Source: an uncultured virus (IMG/VR IMGVR_UViG_3300021185_001360) (lineage: Duplodnaviria; Heunggongvirae; Uroviricota; Caudoviricetes). From it: a stretch of 64,000 nt of DNA. The notes under the pieces are model-generated. The model had not been told where the DNA came from. It did not search any database and saw nothing but the letters and a program-made list of their open reading frames with translations. Within the stretch, counting starts at the first letter, position 1. The number at the start of each line of letters is the position of its first letter. The stretch lies in IMG/VR virus record IMGVR_UViG_3300021185_001360. One strand, 5' to 3'. Positions 95 through 42,509 of this stretch are shown here, piece after piece. The position numbers were made by a program, and so were the translations under genes.

Positions 95-122
95 AGTATA
101 ACACTGATTCGATATTTGTCAA
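95..122 (-). promoter_or_regulatory. sigma70-type early promoter with GAATC in spacer
   Basis: TTGACA-16nt(aatatcGAATCagtgt)-TATACT. Confidence 0.8.
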
Positions 123-126
123 GTTT

Positions 127-426
127 TTACAACATATCCAATATAGGAGACTTCAACCAAGCACGTAAACCCTTTTCATACTGTATTGAATCAGCAAACT
201 TCTGTTTGTCAAATGGTTTGACAATCGTTTGTTCTAGGGCTTTCATCTTCTTGGCTTGTACTAGTGTTACACGTACACGTTTGTTATCATCAGTAAGCAC
301 TGACGTAAGCGGTTTAGGGTTCCCTTGCGAGTCTTCTATCTTAGAAAACTGTAGGAACATCTTCGCTTGTTTATACGACGGACCGTATTCATCTTCTTCT
401 GTTCTGTTATAACTTTCTTTGCTCAT
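127..426 (-). CDS. Hypothetical protein, 99 aa
   Basis: ORF with GAGG RBS; same orientation as neighbours. Confidence 0.7.
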   Translation of the reverse strand: MSKESYNRTEEDEYGPSYKQAKMFLQFSKIEDSQGNPKPLTSVLTDDNKRVRVTLVQAKKMKALEQTIVKPFDKQKFADSIQYEKGLRAWLKSPILDML

Positions 427-536
427 AATACTACCTCTCTGTTAGTTTGTTATTTGCGTGTCCTCCGAAAAAGGCGTCGCGGAAACTCTTTCTCTTTCGG
501 AAAATTTTTCTCATATAGATAAACTACTCATATAAT

Positions 537-683
537 CTATTGTTGTCTAGTCCTCCGAAGTTCACGTTTAACCCGTTTCATTTCACGATACATGTGCCAA
601 CGGTATTGCAAGTATTCAGACCCTATAATAACGGCTGAGACAATGATTGACGCTATCCCAATGATAATCCAATCAGAATACAT
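537..683 (-). CDS. Small membrane protein, 48 aa (MYSDWIIIGIASIIVSAVIIGSEYLQ...RRTRQQ)
   Basis: Hand-translated; ATG overlaps the upstream stop (TAATG); N-terminal hydrophobic helix and basic tail. Confidence 0.6.
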   Translation of the reverse strand: MYSDWIIIGIASIIVSAVIIGSEYLQYRWHMYREMKRVKRELRRTRQQ

Positions 684-1063
684 TATGATACCGCCATCAA
701 TTCTATCTTACCACTTGCTGAGTTAGGTACTAGTTCCATGTGTACATTCTGCTCAACAGCCGCATCAAGGATAATCTGTTCCATAATCGGTTCTACTATC
801 TCTGTAATACGATCCCACTGACCTTCATAGTAATACCCGTGACGATATTCAGGTAATGGTAATTGATCCCGGCGTAAGCCTAACACACGTAACTGCCTAC
901 CCCTATTACCCAATCCGTTATTGAATATGTCATGTACTACATTCCCTGCTTTACGTAGTCGCTCTAAACACTTATTCTTATTCACTGAATGTACAGAACC
1001 CTCTAGTGGAATACTTTCATCTAGTTTATATACTACTGATTCTAAATCTTTACATACCCACAT
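683..1063 (-). CDS. Hypothetical protein, 126 aa
   Basis: ORF directly downstream of promoter 1092-1119. Confidence 0.7.
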   Translation of the reverse strand: MWVCKDLESVVYKLDESIPLEGSVHSVNKNKCLERLRKAGNVVHDIFNNGLGNRGRQLRVLGLRRDQLPLPEYRHGYYYEGQWDRITEIVEPIMEQIILDAAVEQNVHMELVPNSASGKIELMAVS

Positions 1064-1091
1064 GTTTAAACCTTTCTTTGACTATAGATAT

Positions 1092-1119
1092 AATATATCA
1101 CTGATTCTTTATTTGTCAA
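1092..1119 (-). promoter_or_regulatory. sigma70-type early promoter with GAATC
   Basis: TTGACA-16nt(aataaaGAATCagtga)-TATATT. Confidence 0.75.
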
Positions 1120-1123
1120 GTTT

Positions 1124-1453
1124 TTATTGATAGTATTTTGGATTATTATATATCTCATCAGCAATCATATTATTCTCATGTAGAATAGCTAACTGAGTAT
1201 GTGGATGAAACGCAACACACATAAATCCATCTTCTTCGTATAGCTTAATGTTCTCTTGATACTCATGTTCAGTTAAACAATCAGCATACTCTAAGTGAGT
1301 TAATCCTGGTTCTAATACTAGATAGTCATGCTTGAAGTTGACAAATTCGGTATCGGGTTCTAAATCATGCTTAGATAAAAAGTTCTCATACATAGTAGTA
1401 GCAAATGAGTTAGAGGCAGAACTTATATAGTTAGACATATTAGTAACAATCAT
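1124..1453 (-). CDS. Hypothetical protein, 109 aa
   Basis: ORF with AAGGAG RBS behind promoter 1483-1511. Confidence 0.7.
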   Translation of the reverse strand: MIVTNMSNYISSASNSFATTMYENFLSKHDLEPDTEFVNFKHDYLVLEPGLTHLEYADCLTEHEYQENIKLYEEDGFMCVAFHPHTQLAILHENNMIADEIYNNPKYYQ

Positions 1454-1482
1454 AGGGGAGACTCCTTAATTAAGATATACAT

Positions 1483-1511
1483 AGTATACATGATTCTAAC
1501 GGTTCTGTCAA
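1483..1511 (-). promoter_or_regulatory. sigma70-type early promoter with GAATC
   Basis: TTGACA-17nt(gaaccgttaGAATCatg)-TATACT. Confidence 0.8.
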
Positions 1512-1825
1512 GTTTTGGCACCCTATACATGACACGGTGGTAAAAATATTCTGCGTATTTTTTTGGAATGTGGATCCAATATAAAAAAGTGGTAAACACT
1601 GTATAGGGAAACCCTATATGGAAATAGAGGCAAAAAATGGTCTGCGACCAAACGCCACCTCCAGGCCAAACACTTTCCTACTATATATACAAAAGTTCCG
1701 ATTCGCAAGGCCTTTTATTTTATTTTTTATTTTTACCTGAATCTTTTTGTTTTTCTTTCCATGCACGGTAACCATCAAGCCACGCTGTTTCCATAGTAGT
1801 AGGAGTCTTACTCTTAGACTTCTTA

Positions 1826-2170
1826 CTATGCTTGTGCTTTGCCGTTATGTTCTTTTTTCCATTCCCATTCATCTGTACTCCATTCGTAATCATCATAGTC
1901 TACCCCATCCTCATAGTCTATGGGTATGCACTCTGCTATCTTATGAGTAGTATACAAGTCACCAGTATAGTCTGAGTTCCAGTCCTGTGCTGATACTTCT
2001 ACTTCCTCTCCCTTATAGAACCCATCCTTATATACGACACGCTCTATGCCTCCACACTCCAGTACGGCTTCTTCTGCCTGCTCTGGAGAGTCCGCTACTA
2101 CATCATACTCTACCCATGTAGTGTACGCTGTCTTAACCCTGAACTTCTGCTTACCTATATCTTTATGCAT
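1826..2170 (-). CDS. Hypothetical acidic protein, 114 aa
   Basis: ORF overlapping the upstream gene's stop. Confidence 0.7.
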   Translation of the reverse strand: MHKDIGKQKFRVKTAYTTWVEYDVVADSPEQAEEAVLECGGIERVVYKDGFYKGEEVEVSAQDWNSDYTGDLYTTHKIAECIPIDYEDGVDYDDYEWSTDEWEWKKEHNGKAQA

Positions 2171-2384
2171 TGTTATCCTTTATTACAGTTGCTTGATACT
2201 TCCCGTTAACAGTATATAATATCTTATACCTATCATAGTATGTCTTAGGGTCCCATGCTATGTTCTGTAGCTTCTGTTCCCACATAGCACGATAGTTCGG
2301 GTCTATGTTGTCTGGTAAACGATGTATAAACTGTTTTAGTTTATTAGCACGTTCCCATTGAGTATTGAAATCAAATGGACCCAA
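2163..2384 (-). CDS. Hypothetical protein, 73 aa
   Basis: TTG start with AGGAGG RBS. Confidence 0.65.
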   Translation of the reverse strand: MGPFDFNTQWERANKLKQFIHRLPDNIDPNYRAMWEQKLQNIAWDPKTYYDRYKILYTVNGKYQATVIKDNNA

Positions 2385-2552
2385 TTAGTCCTCCTGTGAT
2401 AGCAACACTGAACGTAGCATTAATACAATGCCAGACACAGTGAATATACCAAACCCTAGCCAGTTATTTGATTCGTAACCGGTTGGACCATCGATGCATC
2501 CTACTGCTAATATCATACAGATGATGCCGGTTATACCATAGAATGTACTCAT
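2385..2552 (-). CDS. Small two-helix membrane protein, 55 aa (MSTFYGITGIICMILAVGCIDGPTGYESNNWLGFGIFTVSGIVLMLRSVLLSQED)
   Basis: Hand-translated; ATGA overlap with the upstream gene; fills the gap exactly. Confidence 0.65.
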   Translation of the reverse strand: MSTFYGITGIICMILAVGCIDGPTGYESNNWLGFGIFTVSGIVLMLRSVLLSQED

Positions 2553-2758
2553 TGATACTTACTCCAATATTCGTTCCACATTTCTGACACTGTTTCTTCA
2601 ATATCGTTTTCATCAAGGCTTAAGTAAAGGCTTTCCTTGTTATACTGTACTGCATCAGCAGTTGCTTCTGAAACGGTATCATTACTCTTAATAAACTCTG
2701 CACACTTATCCCAGAACTGTTCTTCCAGTTCCATTACCCATGCTCCTGTCTTAGACAT
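2549..2758 (-). CDS. Hypothetical protein, 69 aa
   Basis: Coupled to the upstream ORF (TAATG). Confidence 0.7.
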   Translation of the reverse strand: MSKTGAWVMELEEQFWDKCAEFIKSNDTVSEATADAVQYNKESLYLSLDENDIEETVSEMWNEYWSKYQ

Positions 2759-2985
2759 TATTTGCTCACTTTCTGTTTGTTTATGTGTGAGGCAACCAGT
2801 GCATCAAACCTTGTCATGTAATCTACCATACTCAGACTGTTACCGTCAGCGTCCATGAAACAATCAGCATCAACATAGTTCCAGTTGACCGAACCATCTG
2901 AATTAAGGTTCTCTGGGTTAACAACTGCGGTTGCGAATACTGATTCTAAATTTGTCATACTTGTTTCTCTCACTTTATTTCTCAT
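2758..2985 (-). CDS. Hypothetical protein, 75 aa
   Basis: ORF immediately behind promoter 2995-3022. Confidence 0.7.
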   Translation of the reverse strand: MRNKVRETSMTNLESVFATAVVNPENLNSDGSVNWNYVDADCFMDADGNSLSMVDYMTRFDALVASHINKQKVSK

Positions 2986-2994
2986 TATGTATAT

Positions 2995-3022
2995 ACTATA
3001 ACATGATTCGCTATATTGTCAA
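2995..3022 (-). promoter_or_regulatory. sigma70-type early promoter with GAATC
   Basis: TTGACA-16nt(atatagcGAATCatgt)-TATAGT. Confidence 0.8.
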
Positions 3023-3071
3023 GTTTTTAATACCGGAGGCCAAACATATATATGATATAATATATATGATT

Positions 3072-3305
3072 AAAAAGGTTTAATGTTAAACCATTACCGG
3101 GCGGTTTTGCATACGTATGCAAGGTTTCCCGGATAACCGTAACAGTACAGGTTCAGGGAGGCCAAAGGCCTCCCGTCACCGTTCTCTACAGTATTGCTTA
3201 ATTGCCTGATACCCTACGTATCCCAGCCTAGGTTTAAGCTACCCGAACTATGGGTTTTGTTTGTTTAATGACGTAAAAACCAGGGCAACCCTTAAAACTC
3301 GTCAT
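3072..3305 (-). ncRNA. Candidate structured non-coding RNA or multi-hairpin element
   Basis: GC-rich intergenic patch with several perfect stems (3107-3122, 3156-3174, 3268-3305) ending in a hairpin plus U-tract (3072-3092); family not recognised. Confidence 0.35.
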
Positions 3306-3339
3306 AGTCGTATACTTTCCCATCGTAGCCCATTAGACA

Positions 3340-3708
3340 TTAGTTCAAGTAAAGAGGACCTGTCCATTGTATAGTGTAATCATCATCGAAGATATTACCT
3401 CGAGCGGCGTTTAGAGCAGGAGCCTGCCATCCAGCGGCTTTAAGGATATCACCTTTGTTGAAACACTTACTTCCTTTATTAAAATCATCTTTAGCGATAA
3501 AGCCCCATACTGAACTTCCGCTAATGACTTTGATATACTTTTGTCCCTCTTTAAGGGTAATCTTTGAATTGAATTCAGCAATCATGGATTTATTAACTTC
3601 CGATAACTCTTTCGTACCATTACGTGAAGTCCAACGGTAATAATCGTCTTTGATATTCTGAATTAAATTATCTAACTGTTGTTGCATATTTGTTCCCTCA
3701 TCTTTCAT
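3340..3708 (-). CDS. Phage hypothetical protein (KAAGWQAPA...ARGNI...WTGP motif)
   Basis: ORF behind promoter; motif recalled from T4-like phage early genes. Confidence 0.75.
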   Translation of the reverse strand: MKDEGTNMQQQLDNLIQNIKDDYYRWTSRNGTKELSEVNKSMIAEFNSKITLKEGQKYIKVISGSSVWGFIAKDDFNKGSKCFNKGDILKAAGWQAPALNAARGNIFDDDYTIQWTGPLYLN

Positions 3709-3719
3709 TCTATACTTAT

Positions 3720-3748
3720 AGTATACACTTGATTCGCGGTTTTGTCAA
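3720..3748 (-). promoter_or_regulatory. sigma70-type early promoter with GAATC
   Basis: TTGACA-17nt(aaaccgcGAATCaagtg)-TATACT. Confidence 0.8.
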
Positions 3749-3750
3749 GT

Positions 3751-3930
3751 TTAATCGAAAAAGTTACCCAACACCCAAACGAACTTAGTATCACTTACTT
3801 GACTCCATACTCCATCAGACCAATTATTCCACAATATAGCTTTATTGGCATCTTCCATAACATCAAGGCCGTTCTCTGCTTGTGCAGTAAATACGTCACC
3901 TAAATGATTTTCAAATGTAAATGTTTTCAT
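3751..3930 (-). CDS. Hypothetical protein, 59 aa (MKTFTFENHLGDVFTAQAENG...VLGNFFD)
   Basis: Hand-translated ORF between two promoters, purine-rich RBS. Confidence 0.7.
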   Translation of the reverse strand: MKTFTFENHLGDVFTAQAENGLDVMEDANKAILWNNWSDGVWSQVSDTKFVWVLGNFFD

Positions 3931-3958
3931 ATTCTCACTCTCTTGTTAGTATGTATAT

Positions 3959-3986
3959 ACTATAACACGATTCGCTGTATTGTCAA
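3959..3986 (-). promoter_or_regulatory. sigma70-type early promoter with GAATC
   Basis: TTGACA-16nt(atacagcGAATCgtgt)-TATAGT; 28 bp at 3963-3990 identical to 34407-34434. Confidence 0.8.
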
Positions 3987-4022
3987 GTTTATGGCAAAAC
4001 TATTTCCCACGTAGGGCACGGT

Positions 4023-4268
4023 TTTAATTCACTATAGGGGAACAGTATAGGGTAACTGTAGAGCATAGTTGTGGAATACGCTATATAATTCATCCAGAAT
4101 GGTGGCGAATCACGCTGTAACACGCTCTAAGGCGCTCTAAAGGTACATTTAGCCCATATGTTGCAGGAAAATAAAATAATTACCGCTAGGAAGAGGACGT
4201 TGTTCCTAAAAGGAATTATGAATATACCATTAATTAAATTAATTAATTATTTAATTCACTATAGGGGA
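4023..4268. repeat. 19-bp direct repeat TTTAATTCACTATAGGGGA (4023-4041, 4250-4268) enclosing three 10-bp-phased CGCTSTAA repeats (4111-4140) and an AT-only tract
   Basis: Read directly from the sequence. Confidence 0.7.
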
Positions 4269-4537
4269 TACTTATCTTCTGAGAACCGTAACCAGAATAC
4301 CCATAACCGTTTAAGCACTGATACCTTTATCGTGGGTTCATTGTGTTCACCATGTATCTCTGGGAAGTATTTCTTATAGTTCTCGTTATAGTCTGGTTGA
4401 TTACTTAAATCATCACTGGGTAGTATCTTCACTTTGAGTTTCCCTATTTCTGGATTGTTTCGATGGTTCATCACTGTGTGACGTTCTGTTAGTAATGTAC
4501 TTGTATGTAATATACCTGTCCCGGACTGTGATATCAC
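4259..4537 (-). CDS. Possible hypothetical protein (start uncertain)
   Basis: ORF track only; overlaps the 4413-4709 ORF. Confidence 0.35.
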   Translation of the reverse strand: MISQSGTGILHTSTLLTERHTVMNHRNNPEIGKLKVKILPSDDLSNQPDYNENYKKYFPEIHGEHNEPTIKVSVLKRLWVFWLRFSEDKYPL

Positions 4538-4709
4538 TATCTTTAGGCCCTAGTGAGTGTAAGAATCTATAAAGCAGTGGGAGAGAATGAGTAATCATAA
4601 CTACTATACCACGCACGTATGCAGTATGTTTATACCCACTACTGCTATGTTCTGTAATAATCTTGAACCGTCTGTATATAGTATAATCCCGTGAATAGGT
4701 TGTTTTCAT
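4413..4709 (-). CDS. Possible hypothetical protein
   Basis: ORF track; weak RBS. Confidence 0.35.
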   Translation of the reverse strand: MKTTYSRDYTIYRRFKIITEHSSSGYKHTAYVRGIVVMITHSLPLLYRFLHSLGPKDSDITVRDRYITYKYITNRTSHSDEPSKQSRNRETQSEDTTQ

Positions 4710-4771
4710 AGTCTGTCTCAGTTATGTTATTTAGCTCTGTTTATTACTATTACCTTTATCGTTATCTAGTG

Positions 4772-4987
4772 TTATCTGTATTTAACCAAAGTTATGAATT
4801 CTCTTTCGGTAATATCATGCCCACTTCTAGCACGATATACTTTATAAGCTGTAGTACGGTCTGGAGTATCTATTATGGACATTGCACCGTTCATAATAGA
4901 ATAAGTTCCCCATAGGCTACTGTATTCTATCGTTAGGTTATTGTAGCGTAGGTTTGTGGTGTCAGCGGGATTAGGTTTATCGCTCAT
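4772..4987 (-). CDS. Hypothetical protein, 71 aa
   Basis: ORF track. Confidence 0.45.
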   Translation of the reverse strand: MSDKPNPADTTNLRYNNLTIEYSSLWGTYSIMNGAMSIIDTPDRTTAYKVYRARSGHDITEREFITLVKYR

Positions 4988-5093
4988 TTAATTTAATCAG
5001 TTGTTAATTAGTTCAAAAAAATTTACCGAAGAAGTCGCTACGCTCCGGGCTTCGCCCTTGTTTTCTCTTTTATATCTAACTCTGAGTTGCGTT

Positions 5094-5327
5094 TTACTCG
5101 AATGTCCGCAAGTAGTCAGCTAAGTCTCGTAAGTTGTCTAGCTTGTCTAGTTCATCATCTGAGAATTCGCATCCCATTATATCTTCTATTGAGACTAGTA
5201 GTTCTATAGAATCTAAGCTATCAATACCTTTATCTTTAAGAGAAATGCCTGCATTAATATCCTCATCTGTAACTGTTATGTCTAATCGCTTGAGTATTTC
5301 GTCTTTGAGTATTTGTGTGCTATCCAT
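5094..5327 (-). CDS. acpP: Acyl carrier protein
   Basis: 77 aa, acidic, GIDSLDSIEL phosphopantetheine-site motif; coupled to the upstream radical SAM gene. Confidence 0.88.
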   Translation of the reverse strand: MDSTQILKDEILKRLDITVTDEDINAGISLKDKGIDSLDSIELLVSIEDIMGCEFSDDELDKLDNLRDLADYLRTFE

Positions 5328-6253
5328 TAGTATTCACCTTCGTTTAATTTAATATGTTCATATAGTGGGGCAACAGTCCAGTTTTCTGTTATTCTTCCGC
5401 GTCTACGTGAATTTGGGTCAGGTATTCCTGAGTCATTGTCTGTGTCCCAGTTTGTTATTTTAACCCAGTGTCCACGATTAACTAATTTATTACCTTCTTT
5501 GAGTGGGAATAATATAGTATTGGGTTCATCATTATATATTCCGTACATTGGATTATCGTGATGACTCCAGATATAGTCTTCTGATATGTTCATTTGTTCT
5601 GAGCATAACTTAACTAACTGATTTAATTTAACATTATCTGCGACTTCTGTTTGATATCTACCTAATTGTCCTACGTTTTTAATTCTCATAAAAGCATGAC
5701 GTATTGATTCACGTTCAAAGAGTTCTAATAACTGACCGGGTGCTGTTTCATTTACATCTGGAACAATGATTGTACCTGTGTCTAGTATCATTTTACGTGC
5801 TTTAATATTACGCAGGGCTTTTATTTTCTTTTCGGCACAGCGTAGTTCATCAATCTTTTCATACCAATCATCATTATCTACTCCATTGAGTGATAGGTAA
5901 ACATGTCGTAAACCTGTATCATGTAATTCATCAACGTATCTGCGTGATGATAATCTTAATCCGTTTGTAAGTAAAATGCAACGATGTCCGAATTCAAATA
6001 CTGAACGAATAAATTCACCACACTGTGGGTTCATTGTAGGTTCAGCACCAACTATTCGTATCATGCAACGACCATTTAAACGTGATAAGAAATCACGAAA
6101 CTTTTCTAAGTTCATGTCTGGGATTTCACGATTTGGTATGTAACAATTCTTGCAAGACATATTACATTTGTGTGTGATATCAGCCATGATATCCATAAAT
6201 GTGTTTTCTTCTGGGAGTTGTTCGTGATAATTAAGTAAGATGTTATCTATCAT
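5327..6253 (-). CDS. Radical SAM protein
   Basis: CNMSCKNC (CX3CX2C), GAEPT, TNG. Confidence 0.9.
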   Translation of the reverse strand: MIDNILLNYHEQLPEENTFMDIMADITHKCNMSCKNCYIPNREIPDMNLEKFRDFLSRLNGRCMIRIVGAEPTMNPQCGEFIRSVFEFGHRCILLTNGLRLSSRRYVDELHDTGLRHVYLSLNGVDNDDWYEKIDELRCAEKKIKALRNIKARKMILDTGTIIVPDVNETAPGQLLELFERESIRHAFMRIKNVGQLGRYQTEVADNVKLNQLVKLCSEQMNISEDYIWSHHDNPMYGIYNDEPNTILFPLKEGNKLVNRGHWVKITNWDTDNDSGIPDPNSRRRGRITENWTVAPLYEHIKLNEGEY

Positions 6254-6266
6254 AAATAGTATTTAT
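6252..6266. promoter_or_regulatory. Palindromic divergent late-type promoter ATAAATA-G-TATTTAT
   Basis: T4 late consensus is TATAAATA; one copy per strand at the junction of divergent genes. Confidence 0.55.
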
Positions 6267-6280
6267 CAGGGAGTAAATTC

Positions 6281-6913
6281 ATGGATAAAAGAAGCGTAGC
6301 ACGTAACCGAATTGATAAGCCATTATTTAATTGTCTTGGACATATGAGTTCGATGAACCTAGAATTAATTAATGAATTATATGATACCCAACCAGAAGAA
6401 GATGTACTGGATGTAAGTATTGGTTTGCGTAAGTCAGTTAACTTAGATGCATATAATATGAGTGATGAATTTATGACCTTGGTTAATACTCGTAACTATC
6501 ATCAGAAATTAATATCTAAACCCGCAGTTGCAGAACCTGTTAATGAATATGATTGGACTGTTCATAATGTAAAATATATACCTGTTATAAATGAATTACG
6601 TGATATATTGTCTGTACCTGAGTTATATAGATTACGTATGGGATGGATGAAGTCAACAGAAAGAATAGAACCACATATAGACCAACCACATATCGATAGG
6701 TTTACTATGATTATGCGTGGGGAACATAGATTTGTTATTACTAAACGTGGGGTTGAACATGAGAGAATAATGAAGCCCGGAGAAGTTTGGTATATAAATA
6801 CTAATTGGGATCATTCAGTATATATTGATACTGATGAGCCAAGAATAGCACTACTTGGATGTTTTAAATACGAGAAAACACTTGCTATTTCAGACGATTT
6901 GAGTTATAATTAA
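6281..6913 (+). CDS. Fe(II)/2OG oxygenase, aspartyl/asparaginyl beta-hydroxylase-like
   Basis: PHID...HSV...R facial-triad pattern, MKPGEVWYIN cupin motif. Confidence 0.75.
   Translation: MDKRSVARNRIDKPLFNCLGHMSSMNLELINELYDTQPEEDVLDVSIGLRKSVNLDAYNMSDEFMTLVNTRNYHQKLISKPAVAEPVNEYDWTVHNVKYIPVINELRDILSVPELYRLRMGWMKSTERIEPHIDQPHIDRFTMIMRGEHRFVITKRGVEHERIMKPGEVWYINTNWDHSVYIDTDEPRIALLGCFKYEKTLAISDDLSYN
6882..6910 (+). promoter_or_regulatory. sigma70-type promoter
   Basis: TTGCTA-17nt-TATAAT upstream of 6937. Confidence 0.6.
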
Positions 6914-6936
6914 GTTAATTAAAAAGGGAATATTAT

Positions 6937-7656: not shown

Positions 7657-7769
7657 TTAAAAGAATAGTCGATATTATTCTTTACCCTTGGACAGAGTTC
7701 AAAAGACGTAGAGAAATGAAAAAAAGATTAGAGGAATTAAAGAAGCGTGATCCATTCATTTATAAATAG
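7653..7769 (+). CDS. 38-aa small protein (MIKRIVDIILYPWTEFKRRREMKKRLEELKKRDPFIYK)
   Basis: Hand-translated; ATGA overlap with the SGNH gene, AGGAAG RBS; precedes the carbamoyltransferase. Confidence 0.65.
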   Translation: MIKRIVDIILYPWTEFKRRREMKKRLEELKKRDPFIYK

Positions 7770-7785
7770 GCGTGAGCCTGTTATA

Positions 7786-32411: not shown

Positions 32412-32440
32412 ATTATAACAAATTGAGGGAACGAAGTCAA
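32412..32440 (-). promoter_or_regulatory. sigma70-type promoter
   Basis: TTGACT-17nt-TATAAT. Confidence 0.65.
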
Positions 32441-33041: not shown

Positions 33042-33046
33042 AGTAT

Positions 33047-34393: not shown

Positions 34394-34402
34394 TATGTAT
34401 AC

Positions 34403-34430
34403 ATATTAACACGATTCGCTGTATTGTCAA
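34403..34430 (-). promoter_or_regulatory. sigma70-type early promoter with GAATC
   Basis: TTGACA-16nt(atacagcGAATCgtgt)-TAATAT. Confidence 0.75.
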
Positions 34431-34612: not shown

Positions 34613-34874
34613 TATGAGCAGAAGGTCTATTATGCTCTACCGGCTTAGTAGCATATTCATCTGAACCAGGAACATATACACTTTCCACCATATATTCTAC
34701 ATCTTTTCCTAACATAGGGACTCTAACACCTCTGTCCAATATCTTTTGTATGATATCTTTAGCATGGTCACTATCATAAGCAAACACTGATAATTGGTCA
34801 ACTTCTCCAGCTGGAGCATCAACAGGTCTAATGTTTACTATATAGTCATTTTTTAGCGATTTTAGTGTTATCAT
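34590..34874 (-). CDS. Hypothetical protein, 94 aa
   Basis: ORF behind a TTGACA-16nt-TATAAT promoter (34905-34932). Confidence 0.7.
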   Translation of the reverse strand: MITLKSLKNDYIVNIRPVDAPAGEVDQLSVFAYDSDHAKDIIQKILDRGVRVPMLGKDVEYMVESVYVPGSDEYATKPVEHNRPSAHIGSAYIV

Positions 34875-34955
34875 TTGGTCTCTCTTTATTGTTAATATAC
34901 TTATATTATACTACAGATTTACAACCTGTCAACCTTTTGAGAGATAAAAAACTAA

Positions 34956-36104
34956 TTATTTTATCAAAATACTAGCATTTGTGCCACCAAAACCGAAAGA
35001 ATTGCACAATACAGAGGTTATTTCTGCACGTTCTGACTTACTACGTATGTTTGGACTATAACCTTCTTCAAACGCTTCTACGTTCACCGTAGGCGGTATA
35101 ATAGCGTGTTTTAGAGACATAATAGACATAGCAAGTTCTACAGAACCAGCGGCGCCCATACAGTGTCCTAACTGTGATTTGTTAGCAACTATGGGTACAT
35201 CCTGTAATCCTAATCTATTGATAGCATCTAGTTCCGCATAATCTCCCATAGGTGTTGATGTTCCGTGTACATTAATAAGACTAGGTGTTGTGTCTTTTAA
35301 AGCATCTTTCATGCATTCTTGTACAACCTTGCCGTCAGGATGAGGAGCAACAGTTTGATAGGCATCATTATTGATAGCATAACCATCAATCTCGCATATT
35401 GTATTGTCCGTCTTATGTTTACTCAATAAGAATAACGCACCGCCTTCACTTAATACTAATCCATCACGTTGAGTATCATAAGGTCTTGATGCTTTTTCTG
35501 GTGTATCATTATATTTGGTTGATAAGGCTCTGAGTTTTCCCATCTGTTTGAATGCATCTGGGTGTATAGTTTTATCTACAGAACCTGCTATTACATTATC
35601 TACCATACCCATTTCAATCATCATGGCCGCCCATATAACACTATAGATGCCTGTGCTACATGCAGTCAAGGTCATTGCACTAGCACCAGTTAAACCATAT
35701 TTCATGTTTATATTATGTGCAATCATATCAGGACAATAGTGATAAATGTTATCAGCATTTTCCTTATTTGACTGTAAAATTTCTAAGTACATAGAGAAGC
35801 CCGGAGATACAATAACACCTGTACGACTTTTATCTAATCCATCTAAGTTTATTTGACTTGCTAATGCTAAAGCCCATTGATTTGATTCTGGAAGTCTATC
35901 ACGTTCTGACTCAGTTATGATAGGATATTCTTTTGCATCGAAATGAAACTCTCCAGCTACTTTGCTTCGTGTCCATCTACTTTCATTTGGGTCAAACTTT
36001 GTAATTGGCCCATATGCTACTTTGTTATTGGTAACTCCTTTCCATGTTTCCTGTAAATCACCGAAGGGCGTGAAACATGAAAGGTCGTTAATATATACGG
36101 TCAT
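34956..36104 (-). CDS. fabF: Beta-ketoacyl-ACP synthase (FabF/FabB-type)
   Basis: TACSTG, HGTST..GD, KSQLGHCMGAAG, NSFGFGG: complete Cys-His-His triad. Confidence 0.92.
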   Translation of the reverse strand: MTVYINDLSCFTPFGDLQETWKGVTNNKVAYGPITKFDPNESRWTRSKVAGEFHFDAKEYPIITESERDRLPESNQWALALASQINLDGLDKSRTGVIVSPGFSMYLEILQSNKENADNIYHYCPDMIAHNINMKYGLTGASAMTLTACSTGIYSVIWAAMMIEMGMVDNVIAGSVDKTIHPDAFKQMGKLRALSTKYNDTPEKASRPYDTQRDGLVLSEGGALFLLSKHKTDNTICEIDGYAINNDAYQTVAPHPDGKVVQECMKDALKDTTPSLINVHGTSTPMGDYAELDAINRLGLQDVPIVANKSQLGHCMGAAGSVELAMSIMSLKHAIIPPTVNVEAFEEGYSPNIRSKSERAEITSVLCNSFGFGGTNASILIK

Positions 36105-36876
36105 ATTTTAAATCCGTTGCTATAATGTATTTGATGATTAATCCTGTTGGATCAAATTGATACCACTTCTCTTGTGTAGTGTAACTTAAACTGTTATTAT
36201 GATGGTTATTATGCCAACCTTCACCGAATGTGATTAATGCTAAGAACCAGTTATTCTTACTATCATCACCTGTATCGTGTTCTGGCTTACCAAATATGTG
36301 TAGTAAATGTACAATACCAAATGTACCTACCCAAAATTGATACACGCCTGTAATACCTAATACATATCCCGGTAAGATTGGATCGATAAGAAATAGAATA
36401 ATCATAGCAACTGTAATAATTTGAAAATAATAACGTTGCATAAATCTTACTTGCGGATCCATATATAAGTCTTTAAAAATTCTACGTTCAGGAGGAAAGT
36501 CTTCATAGAAACCCATTAAGTTTTCCCACCATGATTTTTCTCTTGGACTATGTATGTCCATACCTTCTACATCGGAATATTTGTGATGTAATCTATGTCC
36601 ACCTATCGTTGCTAATGGTTTACCTGGAAAGCCTAATGCGCCCCACCAGAGCAATAGTACCTGACGTTTCCTTCCAGTCTGATAACTTCTATGTGCCCAA
36701 TATCTGTGCCAACCTGCAAATCCACCTATCATAGTTGTTATACAACCCCATGCAAACGAGTACCAAAAATACTCTGGTGCGGTTATAATACTAAAGAGTA
36801 ATACCAGGTGCAAAACAATCCATAGTGTTCGCATCTTCCAACCATAAGTATATTTTTCTAGTAGACTTTTAATCAT
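36088..36876 (-). CDS. Membrane fatty acid desaturase (delta-9 type)
   Basis: His boxes HRYWAH, HRLHH, GEGWHNNHH; transmembrane helices. Confidence 0.9.
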   Translation of the reverse strand: MIKSLLEKYTYGWKMRTLWIVLHLVLLFSIITAPEYFWYSFAWGCITTMIGGFAGWHRYWAHRSYQTGRKRQVLLLWWGALGFPGKPLATIGGHRLHHKYSDVEGMDIHSPREKSWWENLMGFYEDFPPERRIFKDLYMDPQVRFMQRYYFQIITVAMIILFLIDPILPGYVLGITGVYQFWVGTFGIVHLLHIFGKPEHDTGDDSKNNWFLALITFGEGWHNNHHNNSLSYTTQEKWYQFDPTGLIIKYIIATDLKYDRIY

Positions 36877-37483
36877 GTTTTTCTATCCTCTCTCCTGTTC
36901 TAAAGTTTCTCCAATTAAACTTCCAAACATCTTGCTTAATCCCATACAATGGGAAATCTTTATGTAATAGAGTTAGCTTATCTTCGTGTGGCCATGCCAC
37001 ATAAGCAAATCTCCATATCTTGTGCATCGTGCCACTTCTATCTTCACTGTGGTCTTGTGATGCTGTTGTAACCACACAATCTGTGGCTCCTTGTTCATGT
37101 GCCCAATCTACCATAAAAGGAACTAATCTTGCAAATCCAAACTCATGATACATTCTTCTAGTATTCTGTCTATCGTCTGCCATATTACGCCACTCAGGTA
37201 GTGTTGCCAATCTATAGTTTATCATATAACATGTATCATGTACATGTGGCAAGTAATGTGCACCTGCCATTGATACTATCTTATCCTCGTGATAAACAAA
37301 CCACCAGTTCTCTTGTGAACCCCATTTGCCAAACTTCAATGCTTTGAGACTAGCATTATTTAGTATACCTGCATCACCACACTTATCGCAGAATTCTTCT
37401 AAGTCTGCTTTTAATGTGCTATCGTATTCTACTACTTTAAATTCGTAACCCTCTGCACCAGTGAATGTTTCTAATACTTTCAT
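36869..37483 (-). CDS. Hypothetical protein, possibly GNAT-fold acyltransferase
   Basis: Coupled ORF; KIVSMAG...YRLATLPEWR..GFARL..WA...GA pattern resembles GNAT motif A. Confidence 0.45.
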   Translation of the reverse strand: MKVLETFTGAEGYEFKVVEYDSTLKADLEEFCDKCGDAGILNNASLKALKFGKWGSQENWWFVYHEDKIVSMAGAHYLPHVHDTCYMINYRLATLPEWRNMADDRQNTRRMYHEFGFARLVPFMVDWAHEQGATDCVVTTASQDHSEDRSGTMHKIWRFAYVAWPHEDKLTLLHKDFPLYGIKQDVWKFNWRNFRTGERIEKHD

Positions 37484-38205
37484 TTCTTAGCCAATAACAT
37501 TGGAATATAATATTTACCAGCCCAATCAGTTAGGTCATCACGTGACATATCAAGTCTTGCTGAATACTTGTGATGTATGTCGTGACATCCCTCTCCCATC
37601 ATCCAGATGTTTGAAAAGCCACCTAATCTAGCAGGCCCACCCTCTTTGTGTGCTGAGAAGTTTAACCAAGTAAGTGCTACCCACATGTGAGTAAAGTTAA
37701 ATGCTTGCCATACAACTAACCACGGGCTGATTATTAAATGTATTAATGTGAATAATGCATATAGTTTCCAATAGTTTCTATCAACATAAACTACATCACG
37801 TTTCTTTAATAGAAAACGTAAACTAATATAATCCTCTGGCGTCTTATAATGTCCTAACCACATTTTCCAGAAGCCTAGGTCAGCTGGATTATGCGTGTCC
37901 TTATCTGTATCTGAATTCTTATGATGATTTAAATGAGAGTACACATATTGTATTGGACTTCCATTTGCACTCATAATAATACCATACAACATTGCATAGC
38001 GTCCTACGATATGAGGAACAAATTGGTCATGACATAACCATCGATGATATGCAATCTGTGACAATGCATTTGTTACACAACCATATAAGGTAAATGTTAA
38101 TGCAAGTTGCCAAGATCCACCTGTAATAAAGTATGCCGGTATACCAATTAAGGTAATTGCTAACATGAAAAATACTTTTACTGTTACTTTATTTTGATAT
38201 GTCAT
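37480..38205 (-). CDS. Second membrane fatty acid desaturase
   Basis: His boxes HRWLCH, HLNHH, GEGCHDIHH. Confidence 0.88.
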   Translation of the reverse strand: MTYQNKVTVKVFFMLAITLIGIPAYFITGGSWQLALTFTLYGCVTNALSQIAYHRWLCHDQFVPHIVGRYAMLYGIIMSANGSPIQYVYSHLNHHKNSDTDKDTHNPADLGFWKMWLGHYKTPEDYISLRFLLKKRDVVYVDRNYWKLYALFTLIHLIISPWLVVWQAFNFTHMWVALTWLNFSAHKEGGPARLGGFSNIWMMGEGCHDIHHKYSARLDMSRDDLTDWAGKYYIPMLLAKK

Positions 38206-39881
38206 TACTTCTTTAGTGATTCCTCTAATACTTCTTCGTGGCTTTTGCCATCAAACAAAAACTTTCTATGCCAATCGTATGCATGTGGAGCCAAATCGCC
38301 TTGTGCCTTACTTAATTTCTTGCAATACTCGAACATTATATCTGCTTTGTCTAACAGTTCTTTCTTAGTATTTAGTTCAACTGAATCATCAAAACACCCC
38401 ATAGCAGTGGCTACATTCATCCACATATAATCAGGATATAAACTATTACCTATATGATTGTCAGGGTTTCTATACTCTTCCCAACATGCTTTGGCATGAT
38501 TGTGCTTCTTGCCATACTCTTTTTGTTTCTTCCAGAAATTAGTATCTTCTCTATTTGATAATGTATAATGATATGCAATAAAGTTTGCAGTATGGTCTTC
38601 TAATTTATTCATACTCTTATTATATGCATGTACACTTCCAGGTGATATAGTTTTATCCTCGTCCCATGCACGTTTTACTAATCTATCTAATATCTGTATG
38701 CCCCATTGTGTTATGTATAATGCATTACCTTCCATTGGTTCAATAAATGAATGACTCATTCCGATGCTTAGTACGTTTTTATTCCAAGGAGTAACCATAC
38801 GTCCTGCCTTCCATGAAATATGTTTTGGTGGTTTGATAAACTCATAACCTTCCCAATATTTCATAAACTTTGCTTTTGCATCTTCGACAGATATTTCAGT
38901 CTTATCAAAAATATAACCTGAACCCATTCTGTTATATAATGAAATAACAAAGTTCCAGCCTTCGTCTTGTGCATACGTTTGTGTATACGGTTTGAATTCG
39001 TTATATATGTCCTTGTACTTTAGTGGACCAACAATAGCATCTTGTGTATGAATAAAATCGTAATCATGCCATTCATTATTCATCCCATCCACTAATACTT
39101 TGTGGAAGCCTGAACAATCGATAAACAAATCACCTTCATGTTCTATGCCATCTTCCATTATTAGTTTTGTAATGTATCCATCCTCATCTTTAATGATATC
39201 TTTGACATCACCAATGGAATGATTAACCCCTTTTGGTATGGCAACTTTATCTCTAATGATTTCTGGAAATCTATTTGCATCTAAATGATATGTATATGCT
39301 GACCAGTCACCGACTAAGCAGTTATCATCCATATCAAATGGTGCCTTGTTACCTTTCATTAAATAATGTTGTTCATGCATATCCTCTGAAAGTTCATTAA
39401 TGTTTTTTCTACCATCACGTACTAATTGCAACCAATAGTCGTTCCACTTATCATTTACTCCGGCTTCGCCTTTAGAATTAGTAAAGTAATCATCTGTAGT
39501 AAGTTGTCCATAAAAACTTCTGGTTAGATGTTTCTCAGGTAGTGCGAATGAAAATGAATAGTATTGTACATCTTCCTTTGGTGCATTCCAATGGTCTGTT
39601 ACATGGTGTCGTTTACCTGGTGTACTCCAACCAACAAATTTGTTACCTAATTTATAAACTGAATTAGTATAACTCATCCAGTCTCTTTCCTCAAGACCCA
39701 TTGTTGATAATAAATCATTTACTTGAGGCACTACACTTTCACCTACACCTATTGTAGGAATGTTATCACTCTCAATTAAAGTAATGTCTAACCACGGGTG
39801 CTTATTTTTCATGTAACCTGCAGTGAACCAACCGTTTATTCCACCACCAACGATTACAAGTTTTTTTAGTTTGGCTTTCAT
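38205..39881 (-). CDS. Flavin-dependent tryptophan-halogenase-family protein
   Basis: VIVGGG.NGW, IGVGES, YKLG.KF.GW, FIDCSGF, FIEPMEG; WxWxIP motif altered to WNFVIS. Confidence 0.85.
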   Translation of the reverse strand: MKAKLKKLVIVGGGINGWFTAGYMKNKHPWLDITLIESDNIPTIGVGESVVPQVNDLLSTMGLEERDWMSYTNSVYKLGNKFVGWSTPGKRHHVTDHWNAPKEDVQYYSFSFALPEKHLTRSFYGQLTTDDYFTNSKGEAGVNDKWNDYWLQLVRDGRKNINELSEDMHEQHYLMKGNKAPFDMDDNCLVGDWSAYTYHLDANRFPEIIRDKVAIPKGVNHSIGDVKDIIKDEDGYITKLIMEDGIEHEGDLFIDCSGFHKVLVDGMNNEWHDYDFIHTQDAIVGPLKYKDIYNEFKPYTQTYAQDEGWNFVISLYNRMGSGYIFDKTEISVEDAKAKFMKYWEGYEFIKPPKHISWKAGRMVTPWNKNVLSIGMSHSFIEPMEGNALYITQWGIQILDRLVKRAWDEDKTISPGSVHAYNKSMNKLEDHTANFIAYHYTLSNREDTNFWKKQKEYGKKHNHAKACWEEYRNPDNHIGNSLYPDYMWMNVATAMGCFDDSVELNTKKELLDKADIMFEYCKKLSKAQGDLAPHAYDWHRKFLFDGKSHEEVLEESLKK

Positions 39882-39883
39882 TT

Positions 39884-41248
39884 TTACTCCACAAATTGTT
39901 CTTTGACTACGTGTCTCTGAACTTTGCCCATAGGATTTCTAGGTAGTGGATCTTTGGTAATAACAATTTCTTTAGGTAATTCATACTGAAATAATTTATC
40001 TTTAACAAAGTCCATCAACTCAAGACTATTTATCTCACTGTCCGCACTGACTACTGCAACAATTTCTTTTTCCCCTAGTCCTCTATCACGATATGTAACA
40101 CAAACTTCGTTAACCTCTTCATGAGGTAATAACATATTTTCAATTTTAATAGGCGATACATTGAAACTGTTTACTTTTATTAAATCTGTTTTACGTGATT
40201 TATAAAATAAAAGATTATGCTGAGTTTCTAATACATCACCAGTACACCAATAGCCATCATCATCTATAGGTGTTTCTTGATTCAGATATCCTTCTGTAAC
40301 ACAACTACCTTTAATCCAAGCAACACCATATCTATCTAATTTGAAATCATAGTTATCAGTAATATGAATTTGTAAAGGATGTGGATCATCTGGAGTTGCC
40401 AAGTGTGTAAACATTGGTACATGTGTTTCAGTACAGCCATACAAGTTTCTTAATGCAGGTGCACCTTTATCAAATAGTTCTTGTAGCATTTCTTCCGGAC
40501 AAACTGTACTACCAAAACCTAACTCACGCCAATGAGACAAGTCTGCGTCTTTCCAACCACGTGTCTTAGACAGGGCCAACATCATTGCAGGAACCATAAT
40601 ACCTATCGTAGGTTTCATTTCGTTACAAATCTTAATAAACTTTCTGGGATTAAACATTTCACAAATTACTGTACACCCTTTCATTAAACCAGGAAGTGTA
40701 TAAAGATACAGACCACCAATAGTCCAAGGAGGAAGTTGTGAGAGTATTACATCATCAGATGTTAAAGTTTGAATTAGAATGTTTTGTATTGAGCCTTGGA
40801 CACATGCCATTCTAGTATGTGGGACTGCCTTAGGCTCTCCTGTAGTACCGCTAGTAAATATAACAGTATATAAATCATCTGCACCTTTGGCAAATACTAA
40901 TCCTTTGTTATGAGGTTTTAGATTAGATGCATCATCCTCATTTAGAATAATATGATTTGGTTTACTGGCATTCTCAATACGAGATACCATACCTTCAGTT
41001 AGATTTGGCATAGTGGGCATGAATGTGACTCCTAACATATCACAAGCTAATACCATTCTTACATAATGATATTCTTTTTCACTTGAAAATAGTAGACGCT
41101 CACCAGGCCTGATGGCAGTAGACAACGTAGCACCTAGTTTTTCAACACTGGTGATTAGTTCGTTGTATGTATAACTCTTATCGTGGCAAATCAGGGCAGT
41201 CTTGCTACCGTGATTCTTTGCCTGTGCTTTTATTGTTTCCCAAATCAT
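39884..41248 (-). CDS. Adenylate-forming (ANL) acyl-CoA/acyl-ACP ligase
   Basis: FTSGTTGEPK, YGCTE, TGD, LPRNPMGKV. Confidence 0.92.
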   Translation of the reverse strand: MIWETIKAQAKNHGSKTALICHDKSYTYNELITSVEKLGATLSTAIRPGERLLFSSEKEYHYVRMVLACDMLGVTFMPTMPNLTEGMVSRIENASKPNHIILNEDDASNLKPHNKGLVFAKGADDLYTVIFTSGTTGEPKAVPHTRMACVQGSIQNILIQTLTSDDVILSQLPPWTIGGLYLYTLPGLMKGCTVICEMFNPRKFIKICNEMKPTIGIMVPAMMLALSKTRGWKDADLSHWRELGFGSTVCPEEMLQELFDKGAPALRNLYGCTETHVPMFTHLATPDDPHPLQIHITDNYDFKLDRYGVAWIKGSCVTEGYLNQETPIDDDGYWCTGDVLETQHNLLFYKSRKTDLIKVNSFNVSPIKIENMLLPHEEVNEVCVTYRDRGLGEKEIVAVVSADSEINSLELMDFVKDKLFQYELPKEIVITKDPLPRNPMGKVQRHVVKEQFVE

Positions 41249-41253
41249 ATCTA

Positions 41254-41282
41254 ATTATAACAAAAAAAGGGAGAGAAGTCAA
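41254..41282 (-). promoter_or_regulatory. sigma70-type promoter, likely leaderless transcript for the lipid operon
   Basis: TTGACT-17nt-TATAAT, 5 nt before the ligase ATG. Confidence 0.7.
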
Positions 41283-41296
41283 CACCTCTCTCCCTT
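41262..41296 (-). terminator. Intrinsic terminator after MoxR
   Basis: 10-bp stem AAGGGAGAGA/TCTCTCCCTT plus U-tract. Confidence 0.75.
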
Positions 41297-41319
41297 AAAA
41301 CGCAATAAAGTGTCTGCTC

Positions 41320-42474
41320 TTATGCGTTATGAGCCTCGATAATTAGCTTACCGTATTTCTTAAAGAACTCCTCGATACAAGGAACCTTCCTAGGCTCAAG
41401 TGGAAGTTTGTAAACTTTTAGTGCAGTACGACCACCTAGAACAATCATTTCAGTTTCAAAGTTATCCATCATGAACCTGAAAAAGTTATCAGCCATTTTG
41501 TACAACTCATCCATTTTGCCTTTGTTTTTCTCTGCATGTTCTTTCAACTCATAACATAGTGAAGCAGTTAGTGAGAACATAGCTGAGATTTCCTTAGCTT
41601 CCCTAGACACCGTTTTTACCTTACCATTTAAGATATCAGTTGGATTAGGAAGTTTACCAGAAATTGCTCGGTGAGCCATAAACTTAGTAGCAACACCATC
41701 ACCAACAGTACCAGCAATTAAGTCATGCAGTTTACTATCATCGATATTTTCATCTTTCATTGGCATCAACTGTGATGCAAAAGTCCATGAACGAGGAGTT
41801 GCGAAAGCCCGTGATGCAGTTCGTGGGTCAAAGTTAAACAAGTCCATCTTATTAGATGTTAAGTAACCAACAACATCAGAATGGATTTTGTTTTCAAGAG
41901 CCCAAGTCTGCCAATCTTCAAAGTCAACACCCATTTCTAAGTGAACGAAACGGTTAGCAAGTGGGCTTGGCATACGATAAGCAACACCTCTATCACTCTC
42001 ACGGTTACCAGCGGCAACAATAAGAACATTATCAGGTAGAGTGTAATTACCTAGACGCCTGTTAAGAATAAGTTGATAAGCCGCCGCTTGTACTGATTGC
42101 GGTGCTTGGTTCATTTCATCTAAAAACAATACAATGTTTTCAAACTGGTCAGCAAGTTCCTGACTAGGCAAATCAGACGGTGTCGCCCAATCCATAGTAT
42201 TTGTTTTCTCATTATAGTATGGGATACCTCGTAAATCAGTAGGTTCCATAAGAGCAAGTCGTAAGTCAATCATATAACCTGAACGCTCTTGTGTGATTGA
42301 ATCAACAATCTCAGATTTACCTACTCCCGGAGGACCCCAAATAAAGACGGGTCGTTGACGATTAAAAGCATAATTAATTTCAGCTTTAATATCACTCGGA
42401 CGTACAATTCGTACATCCATATCATTCATTGAAACTTGTGCAGACATATTTTCATTTCCTTTGTTTTGTATCAT
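41320..42474 (-). CDS. MoxR-like AAA+ ATPase
   Basis: GPPGVGKS Walker A, LFLDE Walker B, AAGN, PLANRF; start may be 42447. Confidence 0.9.
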   Translation of the reverse strand: MIQNKGNENMSAQVSMNDMDVRIVRPSDIKAEINYAFNRQRPVFIWGPPGVGKSEIVDSITQERSGYMIDLRLALMEPTDLRGIPYYNEKTNTMDWATPSDLPSQELADQFENIVLFLDEMNQAPQSVQAAAYQLILNRRLGNYTLPDNVLIVAAGNRESDRGVAYRMPSPLANRFVHLEMGVDFEDWQTWALENKIHSDVVGYLTSNKMDLFNFDPRTASRAFATPRSWTFASQLMPMKDENIDDSKLHDLIAGTVGDGVATKFMAHRAISGKLPNPTDILNGKVKTVSREAKEISAMFSLTASLCYELKEHAEKNKGKMDELYKMADNFFRFMMDNFETEMIVLGGRTALKVYKLPLEPRKVPCIEEFFKKYGKLIIEAHNA

Positions 42475-42481
42475 TAACTAT

Positions 42482-42509
42482 ATAATAGCACGATTCGTGA
42501 TTCTGTCAA
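42482..42509 (-). promoter_or_regulatory. sigma70-type early promoter with two GAATC sites
   Basis: TTGACA-16nt(GAATCacGAATCgtgc)-TATTAT. Confidence 0.75.

Follow-up and report, generated by a model that had tools for sequence, protein, structure and literature searches.

A conserved GANTC box in the spacer of a promoter class of large uncultured phages, and its likeness to the site of GcrA

The stretch of DNA analyzed here, referred to as the window, comprises 64,000 nucleotides (nt) of the IMG/VR record IMGVR_UViG_3300021185_001360, an uncultured virus of the Caudoviricetes. It has a G+C content of 36%, contains no tRNA gene, and encodes a T4-type family B DNA polymerase (PolB), ThyA, DHFR, MetK, a set of 7-deazaguanine genes, and an extensive run of radical SAM enzymes. 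Its minus strand also carries eight promoters, designated P1 to P8, each with a GANTC word in the spacer that separates the -35 element from the -10 element. This spacer box is real, conserved, and under selection, and it belongs to a class of promoters with a 16-nt spacer without being universal. The best single explanation, and the one ranked first because it fits the sequence, predicted position, and strand of the box as well as the kinship of the phage, is that the box is read through the GcrA/CcrM system of the host; it is unproven, and we place it a little short of an even chance.

The eight promoters share the word AAACTTGACA, of which the window contains exactly eight copies, all of them on the minus strand and ending at 126, 1123, 1515, 3026, 3752, 3990, 34434, and 42513. 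Once a single mismatch is allowed, 16 matches are found where 9.8 are expected, so that only the exact copies stand out. Along the minus strand, each copy is built from an A-tract, CTTGACA, 6-9 variable bases, GAATC, 3-5 further bases, and a TAnnnT hexamer. All of the sites are near-consensus sigma70 promoters, with an exact TTGACA as the -35 element in 8 of 8 and a -10 element of the form TAnnnT, which is TGn-extended in six; at 1483-1511 and 3720-3748 the TG directly abuts the hexamer. These same two promoters have a 17-nt spacer, and the other six have one of 16 nt, as had been claimed. A Shine-Dalgarno site and an ATG lie 25-35 nt 3' of the promoters. An independent consensus scan returned the six copies within 1-6300 as the sole minus-strand 11/12 matches in that region, at the coordinates given in the original prediction, whose basic observation of eight minus-strand promoters with AAACTTGACA and a spacer GAATC is thus borne out. 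The plus-strand YGATTC(G/T) sites that it had reported at 106, 1103, 1492, 3005, 3731, 3969, 34413, 42492, and 42499 are likewise all present among the GANTC sites of the window, with the correct flanks in 9 of 9.

The promoters differ in detail, and spacer positions are given here as an index, in which 0 is the base directly after the -35. P1 (95-122) combines TTGACA, a 16-nt spacer, TGn, and TATACT, with its GAATC at 106-110, at index 6 with a gap of 5 nt to the -10; the open reading frame (ORF) downstream of it leaves the left end of the window. P2 (1092-1119; 16-nt spacer, TGn, TATATT) has its box at 1103-1107, again at index 6 with a gap of 5, and drives ORF 683-1063, which encodes 126 aa of no known family. 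The box of P3 (1483-1511; 17-nt spacer, TATACT) lies at 1492-1496, at index 9 with a gap of 3, upstream of ORF 1124-1453. In P4 (2995-3022; 16-nt spacer, TGn, TATAGT) the box reads CGAATCA at 3005-3009, index 7, with a gap of 4, and the promoter drives ORF 2758-2985. The same CGAATCA is found in P5 (3720-3748; 17-nt spacer, TATACT) at 3731-3735, index 7, with a gap of 5, ahead of ORF 3340-3708. CGAATCG is the form in the last three promoters, all of which have a 16-nt spacer and TGn: P6 (3959-3986; TATAGT), with the box at 3969-3973, drives ORF 3751-3930; P7 (34403-34430; TAATAT), with the box at 34413-34417, drives a DUF2201 metallopeptidase/VWA gene at 33047-34393; and P8 (42482-42509; TATTAT), with the box at 42492-42496 (index 7) and a second GAATC that follows the -35 immediately, at 42499-42503 (index 0), drives an AAA ATPase gene at 41320-42474. 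Six of the eight copies drive ORFs that have no family or have only a sub-threshold match to a domain of unknown function. The original prediction had also listed nine other sigma70 promoters as lacking a spacer GANTC. This holds for the eight that were recovered, at 9295 on the plus strand and at 32412, 34905, 41254, 48115, 51897, 56919, and 61337 on the minus strand, of which the one at 34905 has a 16-nt spacer and the remaining seven a 17-nt spacer; the ninth, at 6882, fell short of the criteria applied.

Statements about the whole genome are made by way of a relative that serves as a stand-in. This IMG/VR genome, G002, has a length of 342,607 bp with terminal repeats, is rated 100% complete, and runs colinear with the window throughout, at approximately 70-89% nucleotide identity, mostly 80-87%. 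Because of this colinearity, the phage of the window can itself be assigned, by genome comparison, to the jumbo phages, with a predicted size of about 340 kb. A further IMG/VR record, which shares 91% of the sampled words of the window, is 71 kb long and rated 19% complete. Between 99 and 100% of the sampled words of positions 52001-62000 are held by 19 public sequencing runs from 16 studies, which are labelled as marine, seawater, or viral metagenomes or carry a coded organism name, and a near-identical genotype is therefore widespread in seawater data.

The association of the box with one promoter class becomes clear when strong promoters are collected without regard to the box. These were defined by an exact TTGACA, a TG at -15/-14, and a TAnnnT with no more than two mismatches from TATAAT, with the bases at spacer index 0-12 ignored, and every such site was counted, as a unique sequence, in the window, in G002, in G003 (a more distant relative with 39% G+C), and in G004; G005 and G006 duplicate G002 sequences and were omitted. 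GANTC is found at index 6-7 in 35 of the 42 promoters with a 16-nt spacer (index 7 in 32, index 6 in three) and in 4 of the 37 with a 17-nt spacer, a contrast with a Fisher p value of 4e-11 for copies that are paralogues and hence not independent draws. The genome-wide frequency of GANTC predicts about 0.02 per 16-nt spacer, which excludes a chance origin of the box. In the four genomes the promoters thus fall into two classes, of which the 16-nt class is nearly always boxed and the 17-nt class nearly always unboxed. The latter precedes clamp-like and exonuclease genes, as at 56919-56947 and 48115-48143. A leader word, TA(A/G)T(C/G)A, is found 8-13 nt 3' of the boxed -10, and its fixed positions are T in 38, A in 36, T in 37, and A in 36 of 42 copies.

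Conservation within the spacer is uneven. Index 0-4 carries 0.18-0.42 bits of information and index 7-11 carries 0.70-1.42 bits, a level equal to that of parts of the -10 element. Among seven orthologous promoter pairs of the window and G002, six keep the box (in the seventh, that of P3, TAATC stands in place of GAATC in G002), and they do so while the bases 5' of the box differ and, in two pairs, the box shifts by 1 nt at unchanged spacer length. GATTC replaces GAATC at the same position in 5 of the 35 boxes, an interchange that preserves the GANTC palindrome, and GAGTC or GACTC occurs in none. Since the box is kept amid changed bases, 1-nt slides, and GAATC/GATTC swaps, it is the box itself that is under selection. 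These features also bear on an explanation without any dedicated factor, in which the box would tune the sigma70 polymerase on a short 16-nt spacer beside the RTGn -10 and be kept by descent and gene conversion, as T4-type cassettes are. In its favor, a whole unit of 60 nt is conserved (A-tract, CTTGACA, box, RTGY, -10, leader TA(A/G)T(C/G)A, and Shine-Dalgarno site), near-identical copies such as P6 and P7 lie within one genome, and the box abuts the RTGn motif. However, the spacer varies freely at index 0-4 but not at index 7-11, the slides relative to both hexamers would not be tolerated by a pure polymerase contact, the polymerase has no reason to read the palindrome that the swaps maintain, and in G003 the same box occurs within a different -35 context. 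We regard this explanation as unlikely.

The boxed class is spread through a large uncultured phage family. The pattern TTGACN-N5-9-GANTC-N3-6-TAnnnT has 20, 13, and 12 matches in G002, G003, and G004, compared with 2 in each for a reversed control. A scan of IMG/VR that required GAATC, which is circular and serves solely to show that the cassette is widespread, gave 154 matches at 132 loci, with RTGnTAnnnT following in 99. An unbiased scan, in which many unrelated phages are mixed, gave 128 unique cores, with GANTC at index 7 in 29, elsewhere in 8, and absent from 91.

The published properties of GcrA, as set out in the accessible portions of the papers cited, correspond closely to the phage box. 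The methylated site preferred by GcrA is TGATTCG or, more broadly, YGAKTCK (Haakonsen et al., PMC4647560), and a crystal structure has all seven positions of TGATTCG contacted from the major groove (Wu et al. 2018, PMC5887438). Upstream GcrA boxes are centered in the spacer at -20 +/- 1 and at -30 +/- 2, other published locations include +5 to +30, and the Caulobacter PcsM template has Gm6AATC, in which m6A is N6-methyladenine, at -22 to -18 (Wu et al. 2023, PMC9976885). The phage box is CGAATCR when read along the sense strand, which gives YGATTCG along the antisense strand. In the 35 boxes the base before the core is C in 25, A in 9, and T in 1, the central base is A in 30 and T in 5, and a purine comes next in all 35; all but one read YGAKTCK on one strand, and half are exactly TGATTCG or CGATTCG. 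With the -10 hexamer assumed at -12 to -7, and the start site inferred from it, the box is centered at -20 in P1, P2, and P5, at -19 in P4, P6, P7, and P8, and at -18 in P3. The geometry of P5, with its box at index 7 and 5 nt ahead of the -10, is exactly that of PcsM in the published template, and the strand orientation of the phage boxes is that in which PcsM is written. By our own arithmetic, the chance that a random conserved 7-mer would fit CGAMTCR, in either orientation and no more than 1 nt away from -20, is about one in 10^4; many alternative known motifs could have been matched, which weakens this figure without removing it. In sequence and strand, and in place on this assumed numbering, the motif agrees with the published GcrA grammar more closely than the original prediction, which had proposed a hijacked CcrM/GcrA switch, had recognized.

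In the explanation ranked first, the eight sites are copies of one conserved promoter cassette of a cosmopolitan lineage of marine jumbo phages with genomes of about 340 kb. The sigma70 polymerase of the host would read the CTTGACA -35, the spacer of 16 and sometimes 17 nt, and the TGn-extended -10, and the 7-bp box CGAATCR lies with its center approximately 19-20 bp upstream of the start as inferred. Host GcrA, as the most likely reader, would be carried on region 2 of sigma70 and would dock its DNA-binding domain on the m6A-containing GANTC, on the face of the spacer that points away from the polymerase. The outcome would be preferential loading of polymerase on what are presumably the first genes of the phage to be expressed. 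The methyl mark would be written either by host CcrM or by an adenine methyltransferase that the phage appears to encode next to its replisome genes, and the mechanism would imply an alphaproteobacterial host.

A number of observations weigh against GcrA as the reader, and the first of these concern the promoters themselves. None of the 35 boxes has G or C as its central base, although GcrA accepts G according to the accessible literature, and the second box of P8 is centered near -26, outside the -30 +/- 2 given there. Near-consensus promoters may need no activator. The box is missing from seven of the 42 promoters of the 16-nt class, and one ortholog no longer has it, so that the claim that all early promoters carry it was too strong and is better restated as a mark of the 16-nt class. 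Some relatives have GATCT or GATTT at the box position (IMG/VR loci L206 and L275-L277), in copies that stand beside GAATC or GATTC copies on the same contig. Nor do any of five cultured phages of alphaproteobacteria show a clear boxed class: Agrobacterium phage Atu_ph07 has 3 candidates where 5.6 are expected, Sinorhizobium phage Phosso has a weak excess of 13 against 7.7, and the roseophage SIO1, Cr30, and HTVC008M have 0 matches each to TTGACN-N5-9-GANTC-N3-6-TAnnnT.

In a rival explanation, the box is the site of another protein, either of the phage or a host protein other than GcrA, acting for example as an early-class repressor or a class activator in a host of any class, with the likeness to the GcrA site being coincidental. 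The restriction of the box to the 16-nt class is what a dedicated regulator of a temporal class would give, near-consensus promoters suit repression over activation, and the tolerance of GATCT and GATTT in relatives and the lack of the box in cultured alphaproteobacterial relatives point the same way. Most of the small, presumed early ORFs have no known family, and in some copies another GAWTC stands 2 nt upstream of the box, as GATTC-NN-GAATC. However, this second box, at index 0, is present in just 4 of the 35 boxed promoters with a 16-nt spacer, its half-sites are 7 bp apart and so on different faces of the helix, and no candidate protein was found. A coincidental fit to GcrA, at about once in 10^4, is also unlikely even when many known motifs are allowed for. 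We consider such a protein possible but somewhat doubtful.

The original prediction had suggested a search for gcrA and ccrM in the genome, and neither was found: profile searches of G001-G005 returned GcrA (PF07750) in 0 of 5 records and no CcrM-type methyltransferase (PF01555) above the cut-off. A 16-bit match to PF01555 in G002 was dropped, as it maps inside a radical SAM gene. The 7-deazaguanine DNA-modification set at 50198-56130 on the minus strand, which adjoins the polymerase gene, encodes a QueE-like radical SAM protein, GTP cyclohydrolase I, a glycosyltransferase-like protein, a phosphoribosyltransferase, and proteins with no assignment; guanine replacement, if real, could alter the recognition of GANTC by any reader protein.

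The genome-wide distribution of GANTC is ambiguous. Of the 16 xxNxx palindromes GANTC is the most depleted: the window has 113 sites where 206 would be expected, and G002 has 615 where the expectation is 1054 (observed/expected 0.55-0.58 overall). The deficit lies in ORFs, in which GANTC stands at 0.49-0.55 of expectation, and in non-ORF DNA the ratio is 1.1-1.9; the promoter boxes make up 9 of the 12 intergenic GANTC sites of the window. A bias in the same direction is reported for CcrM-encoding genomes in the accessible part of Gonzalez et al. (PMC3973325). The contrast between ORF and non-ORF DNA is weaker in Atu_ph07 and Phosso, which infect CcrM hosts, than in the window phage, and in neither is it stronger than in the gammaproteobacterial phage GAP32; it is therefore not diagnostic in phages. 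Other words are also depleted in the window and G002 (GATC at 0.21-0.25, CGCG at 0.27, GCGC, AGCT, and GGCC), which suggests broad restriction avoidance, and plain restriction avoidance could account for the GANTC deficit as well.

A candidate writer of a methyl mark lies at 56928-57473 on the minus strand, between the polymerase gene and a clamp-like gene. This putative N6-adenine DNA methyltransferase of 181 aa, with the motifs ECYTP and NPPYS, matches phrog_799 (DNA methyltransferase) at 9e-31 and is conserved in G001, G002, G003 (72%), and G006. The gene was sought in Phosso, Atu_ph07, and GAP32, and is absent from all three. Its family is not that of CcrM/HinfI, and its target cannot be inferred from Pfam, NCBIfam, and PDB sequence searches, so the enzyme is to be taken as a possible writer and nothing more. 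In that capacity it counts, with the encoded MetK, in favor of the GcrA explanation. It lies directly 3' of an ORF of 223-266 aa and no family (57473-58273, minus strand), the pair being situated between the polymerase and clamp-like genes, and this upstream ORF might encode a specificity partner. The polymerase ends in TNLFDF, a tail that the methyltransferase lacks.

This enzyme opens two further possibilities. In the first, which is a variant of the GcrA explanation, the phage methyltransferase beside the polymerase and clamp would itself mark the GcrA site in fast-start promoters; only packaged, fully methylated genomes would fire, and replication would dilute the mark and turn the class off. 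We hold this variant to be improbable. In the second, GcrA plays no part: the phage methyltransferase or a HinfI-type enzyme of the host would mark the box, polymerase binding would be altered directly or through another reader, packaged and new DNA would fire differently, and the host could be of any class. Such a switch would agree with the presence of the NPPY methyltransferase beside polymerase and clamp in G001, G002, G003, and G006 and its absence from the box-less Phosso, Atu_ph07, and GAP32, with the MetK gene in the window, and with the retention of the palindromic GAWTC core. The methyltransferase stands outside the CcrM/HinfI family, however, with no target that sequence searches reveal. 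GANTC and GATC are also both avoided genome-wide, which argues that the phage enzyme protects neither, and the conserved flanks beyond GANTC indicate a reader with the taste of GcrA. We judge a GcrA-free switch to be very unlikely.

The kinship of the phage is in line with the alphaproteobacterial host that GcrA would require. The polymerase is 48% identical to that of Phosso and 45% to that of Atu_ph07, the nearest cultured kin, both of which infect Rhizobiaceae, followed by gammaproteobacterial jumbo phages at 41-42%. ORF matches to G002 number 96 in Phosso, 83 in Atu_ph07, and 63 in GAP32. Of 53 G002 genes common to all three, 49 have their best match in Phosso or Atu_ph07 and 4 in GAP32; 41 genes match just the two alphaproteobacterial phages and one matches GAP32 alone. 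These identities are low, and GAP32 is the single gammaproteobacterial genome compared in full. Searches of nucleotide databases contribute little, as a megablast search with 23 kb from the window found no match among cultured phages and blastn with the promoter found matches to them at chance level alone.

Other indications diverge, and none of them is decisive for the host. A scan of bacterial genomes and metagenome-assembled genomes for the boxed promoter returned seven loci, of which six are chance matches in coding DNA. The seventh is a true copy, on the 29.8-kb contig PBJR01000026.1 (L177), which is binned in a genome of the Flavobacteriaceae. A flavobacterial host was considered and discounted because the promoters are of the sigma70 type (TTGACA/TATAAT) and Shine-Dalgarno sites are frequent, at 48 of 71 ORFs against a background of 6.5%, with a choice of starts that favored such sites; the contig probably belongs to a phage and was put in the wrong bin on the basis of composition or coverage. 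The transporter SbmA shows 46% identity to enterobacterial and to Shinella homologues alike, PutA of G002 is 40% identical to proteins of Sphingomonas and Tritonibacter and 37-38% to those of gamma- and betaproteobacteria, and the carbamoyltransferase and the AAA ATPase have their best matches in Ralstonia and Pseudomonas jumbo phages, so that by sequence similarity these four proteins appear to indicate no single direction. A cyanophage is unlikely, since psbA was sought in G002 and G003 and found in neither. The accessible part of a survey of marine jumbo phages (PMC9123017) gives no host for this group. The GcrA/CcrM reading stands in part, its motif strengthened, and it lacks a phage-encoded gcrA or ccrM and has kin without the box.

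The remainder of the window and of G002 holds genes of wider interest. From 6281 to 28991 on the plus strand lies a block of about nine radical SAM enzymes (three of them SPASM), three proteins like Asp/Arg beta-hydroxylases, a carbamoyltransferase, an aminotransferase-like protein, and a protein of 1522 aa with no family. The block is conserved in G002 at 83-87% and, from its annotations, looks like a peptide- or metabolite-modifying cluster. Two minus-strand segments, at 5094-6253 and 34956-41248, encode an acyl carrier protein, a radical SAM protein, a beta-ketoacyl synthase, a fatty-acid desaturase, a tryptophan halogenase, and an AMP-binding ligase, and may constitute a phage-borne pathway to a lipid or halogenated metabolite; G002 encodes a phosphopantetheinyl transferase. 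The SbmA/BacA-family transporter at 45351-46322 (minus strand) is full length, with a score of 466 bits. Just upstream of the polymerase gene, at 61023-61283 on the minus strand, an 86-aa protein resembles T4 DsbA-type transcription regulators (phrog_639, 1.5e-7; Pfam Phage_DsbA, 1.4e-3) and is conserved in Phosso and Atu_ph07. Beyond the range of the window, G002 (L154-L156, L160-L161, and L169-L171) encodes host-like proteins that include PutA (948 aa), a ClpB-like ATPase, a DnaJ domain, and a GreA/GreB-like factor. The same regions encode IscA/NifU/SufE, a plastocyanin/azurin-like protein, a sodium:solute symporter, SAM decarboxylase, a CCA/poly(A) polymerase fusion, UvdE, and GroES.

Were the GcrA explanation true, a virus would launch its infection by way of a host epigenetic reader that has so far been described for cellular cell-cycle genes, and the promoters would supply a host clue, from sequence only, for an abundant uncultured phage. 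No report of GcrA boxes in phage promoters was found in the literature searched, the coverage of which leaves out most subscription journals. Should the phage write its own mark, the box would amount to an epigenetic infection timer, with the class of the host readable from promoter grammar alone. Even if GcrA is not involved, the box still defines, in a large phage family, a promoter class with a reader yet to be named.

Among known systems, the closest likeness is to the PcsM-type GcrA/CcrM promoters of Caulobacter crescentus, which in the accessible parts of the literature (PMC9976885, PMC4647560, PMC5887438) share the sigma70 -35 and -10 elements, a single spacer GANTC, the form YGATTCG, a center predicted here at about -20, and GAATC on the sense strand. 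The phage promoters differ from those described there in belonging to a phage rather than a cell-cycle gene, in their near-consensus core and 16-nt spacer, in a central base that is A or T alone, and in the second box of P8 at about -26.

Two systems of T4-type phages also invite comparison. The first consists of mobile early-promoter cassettes, known as PeSL, that have a stem-loop terminator immediately upstream. As in PeSL, many near-identical sigma70 promoters stand before small novel ORFs, with 8 copies in the window and some 20 in G002, and the cassette is conserved across relatives. Unlike PeSL, no stem-loop abuts P1-P6, and positions 1-6300 of the window hold 4 terminator-like sites where 2.9 are expected; T-runs are seen 5' of some relatives' copies and were not counted. 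The uneven conservation inside the spacer is a further difference, as it indicates a functional box rather than recombination homology alone. The second system is that of the T4 middle promoters, in which a MotA box takes the place of the -35 element. Both are phage promoter classes with an extra conserved word, which in T4 is read by a cofactor of the sigma70 polymerase. The original prediction had offered a box for a MotA-like activator as its alternative; such a box does not match what is seen, since every copy retains an intact -35 element. The phage promoters have a perfect TTGACA in 8 of 8, and, unlike those of T4, they place their extra word in the spacer.

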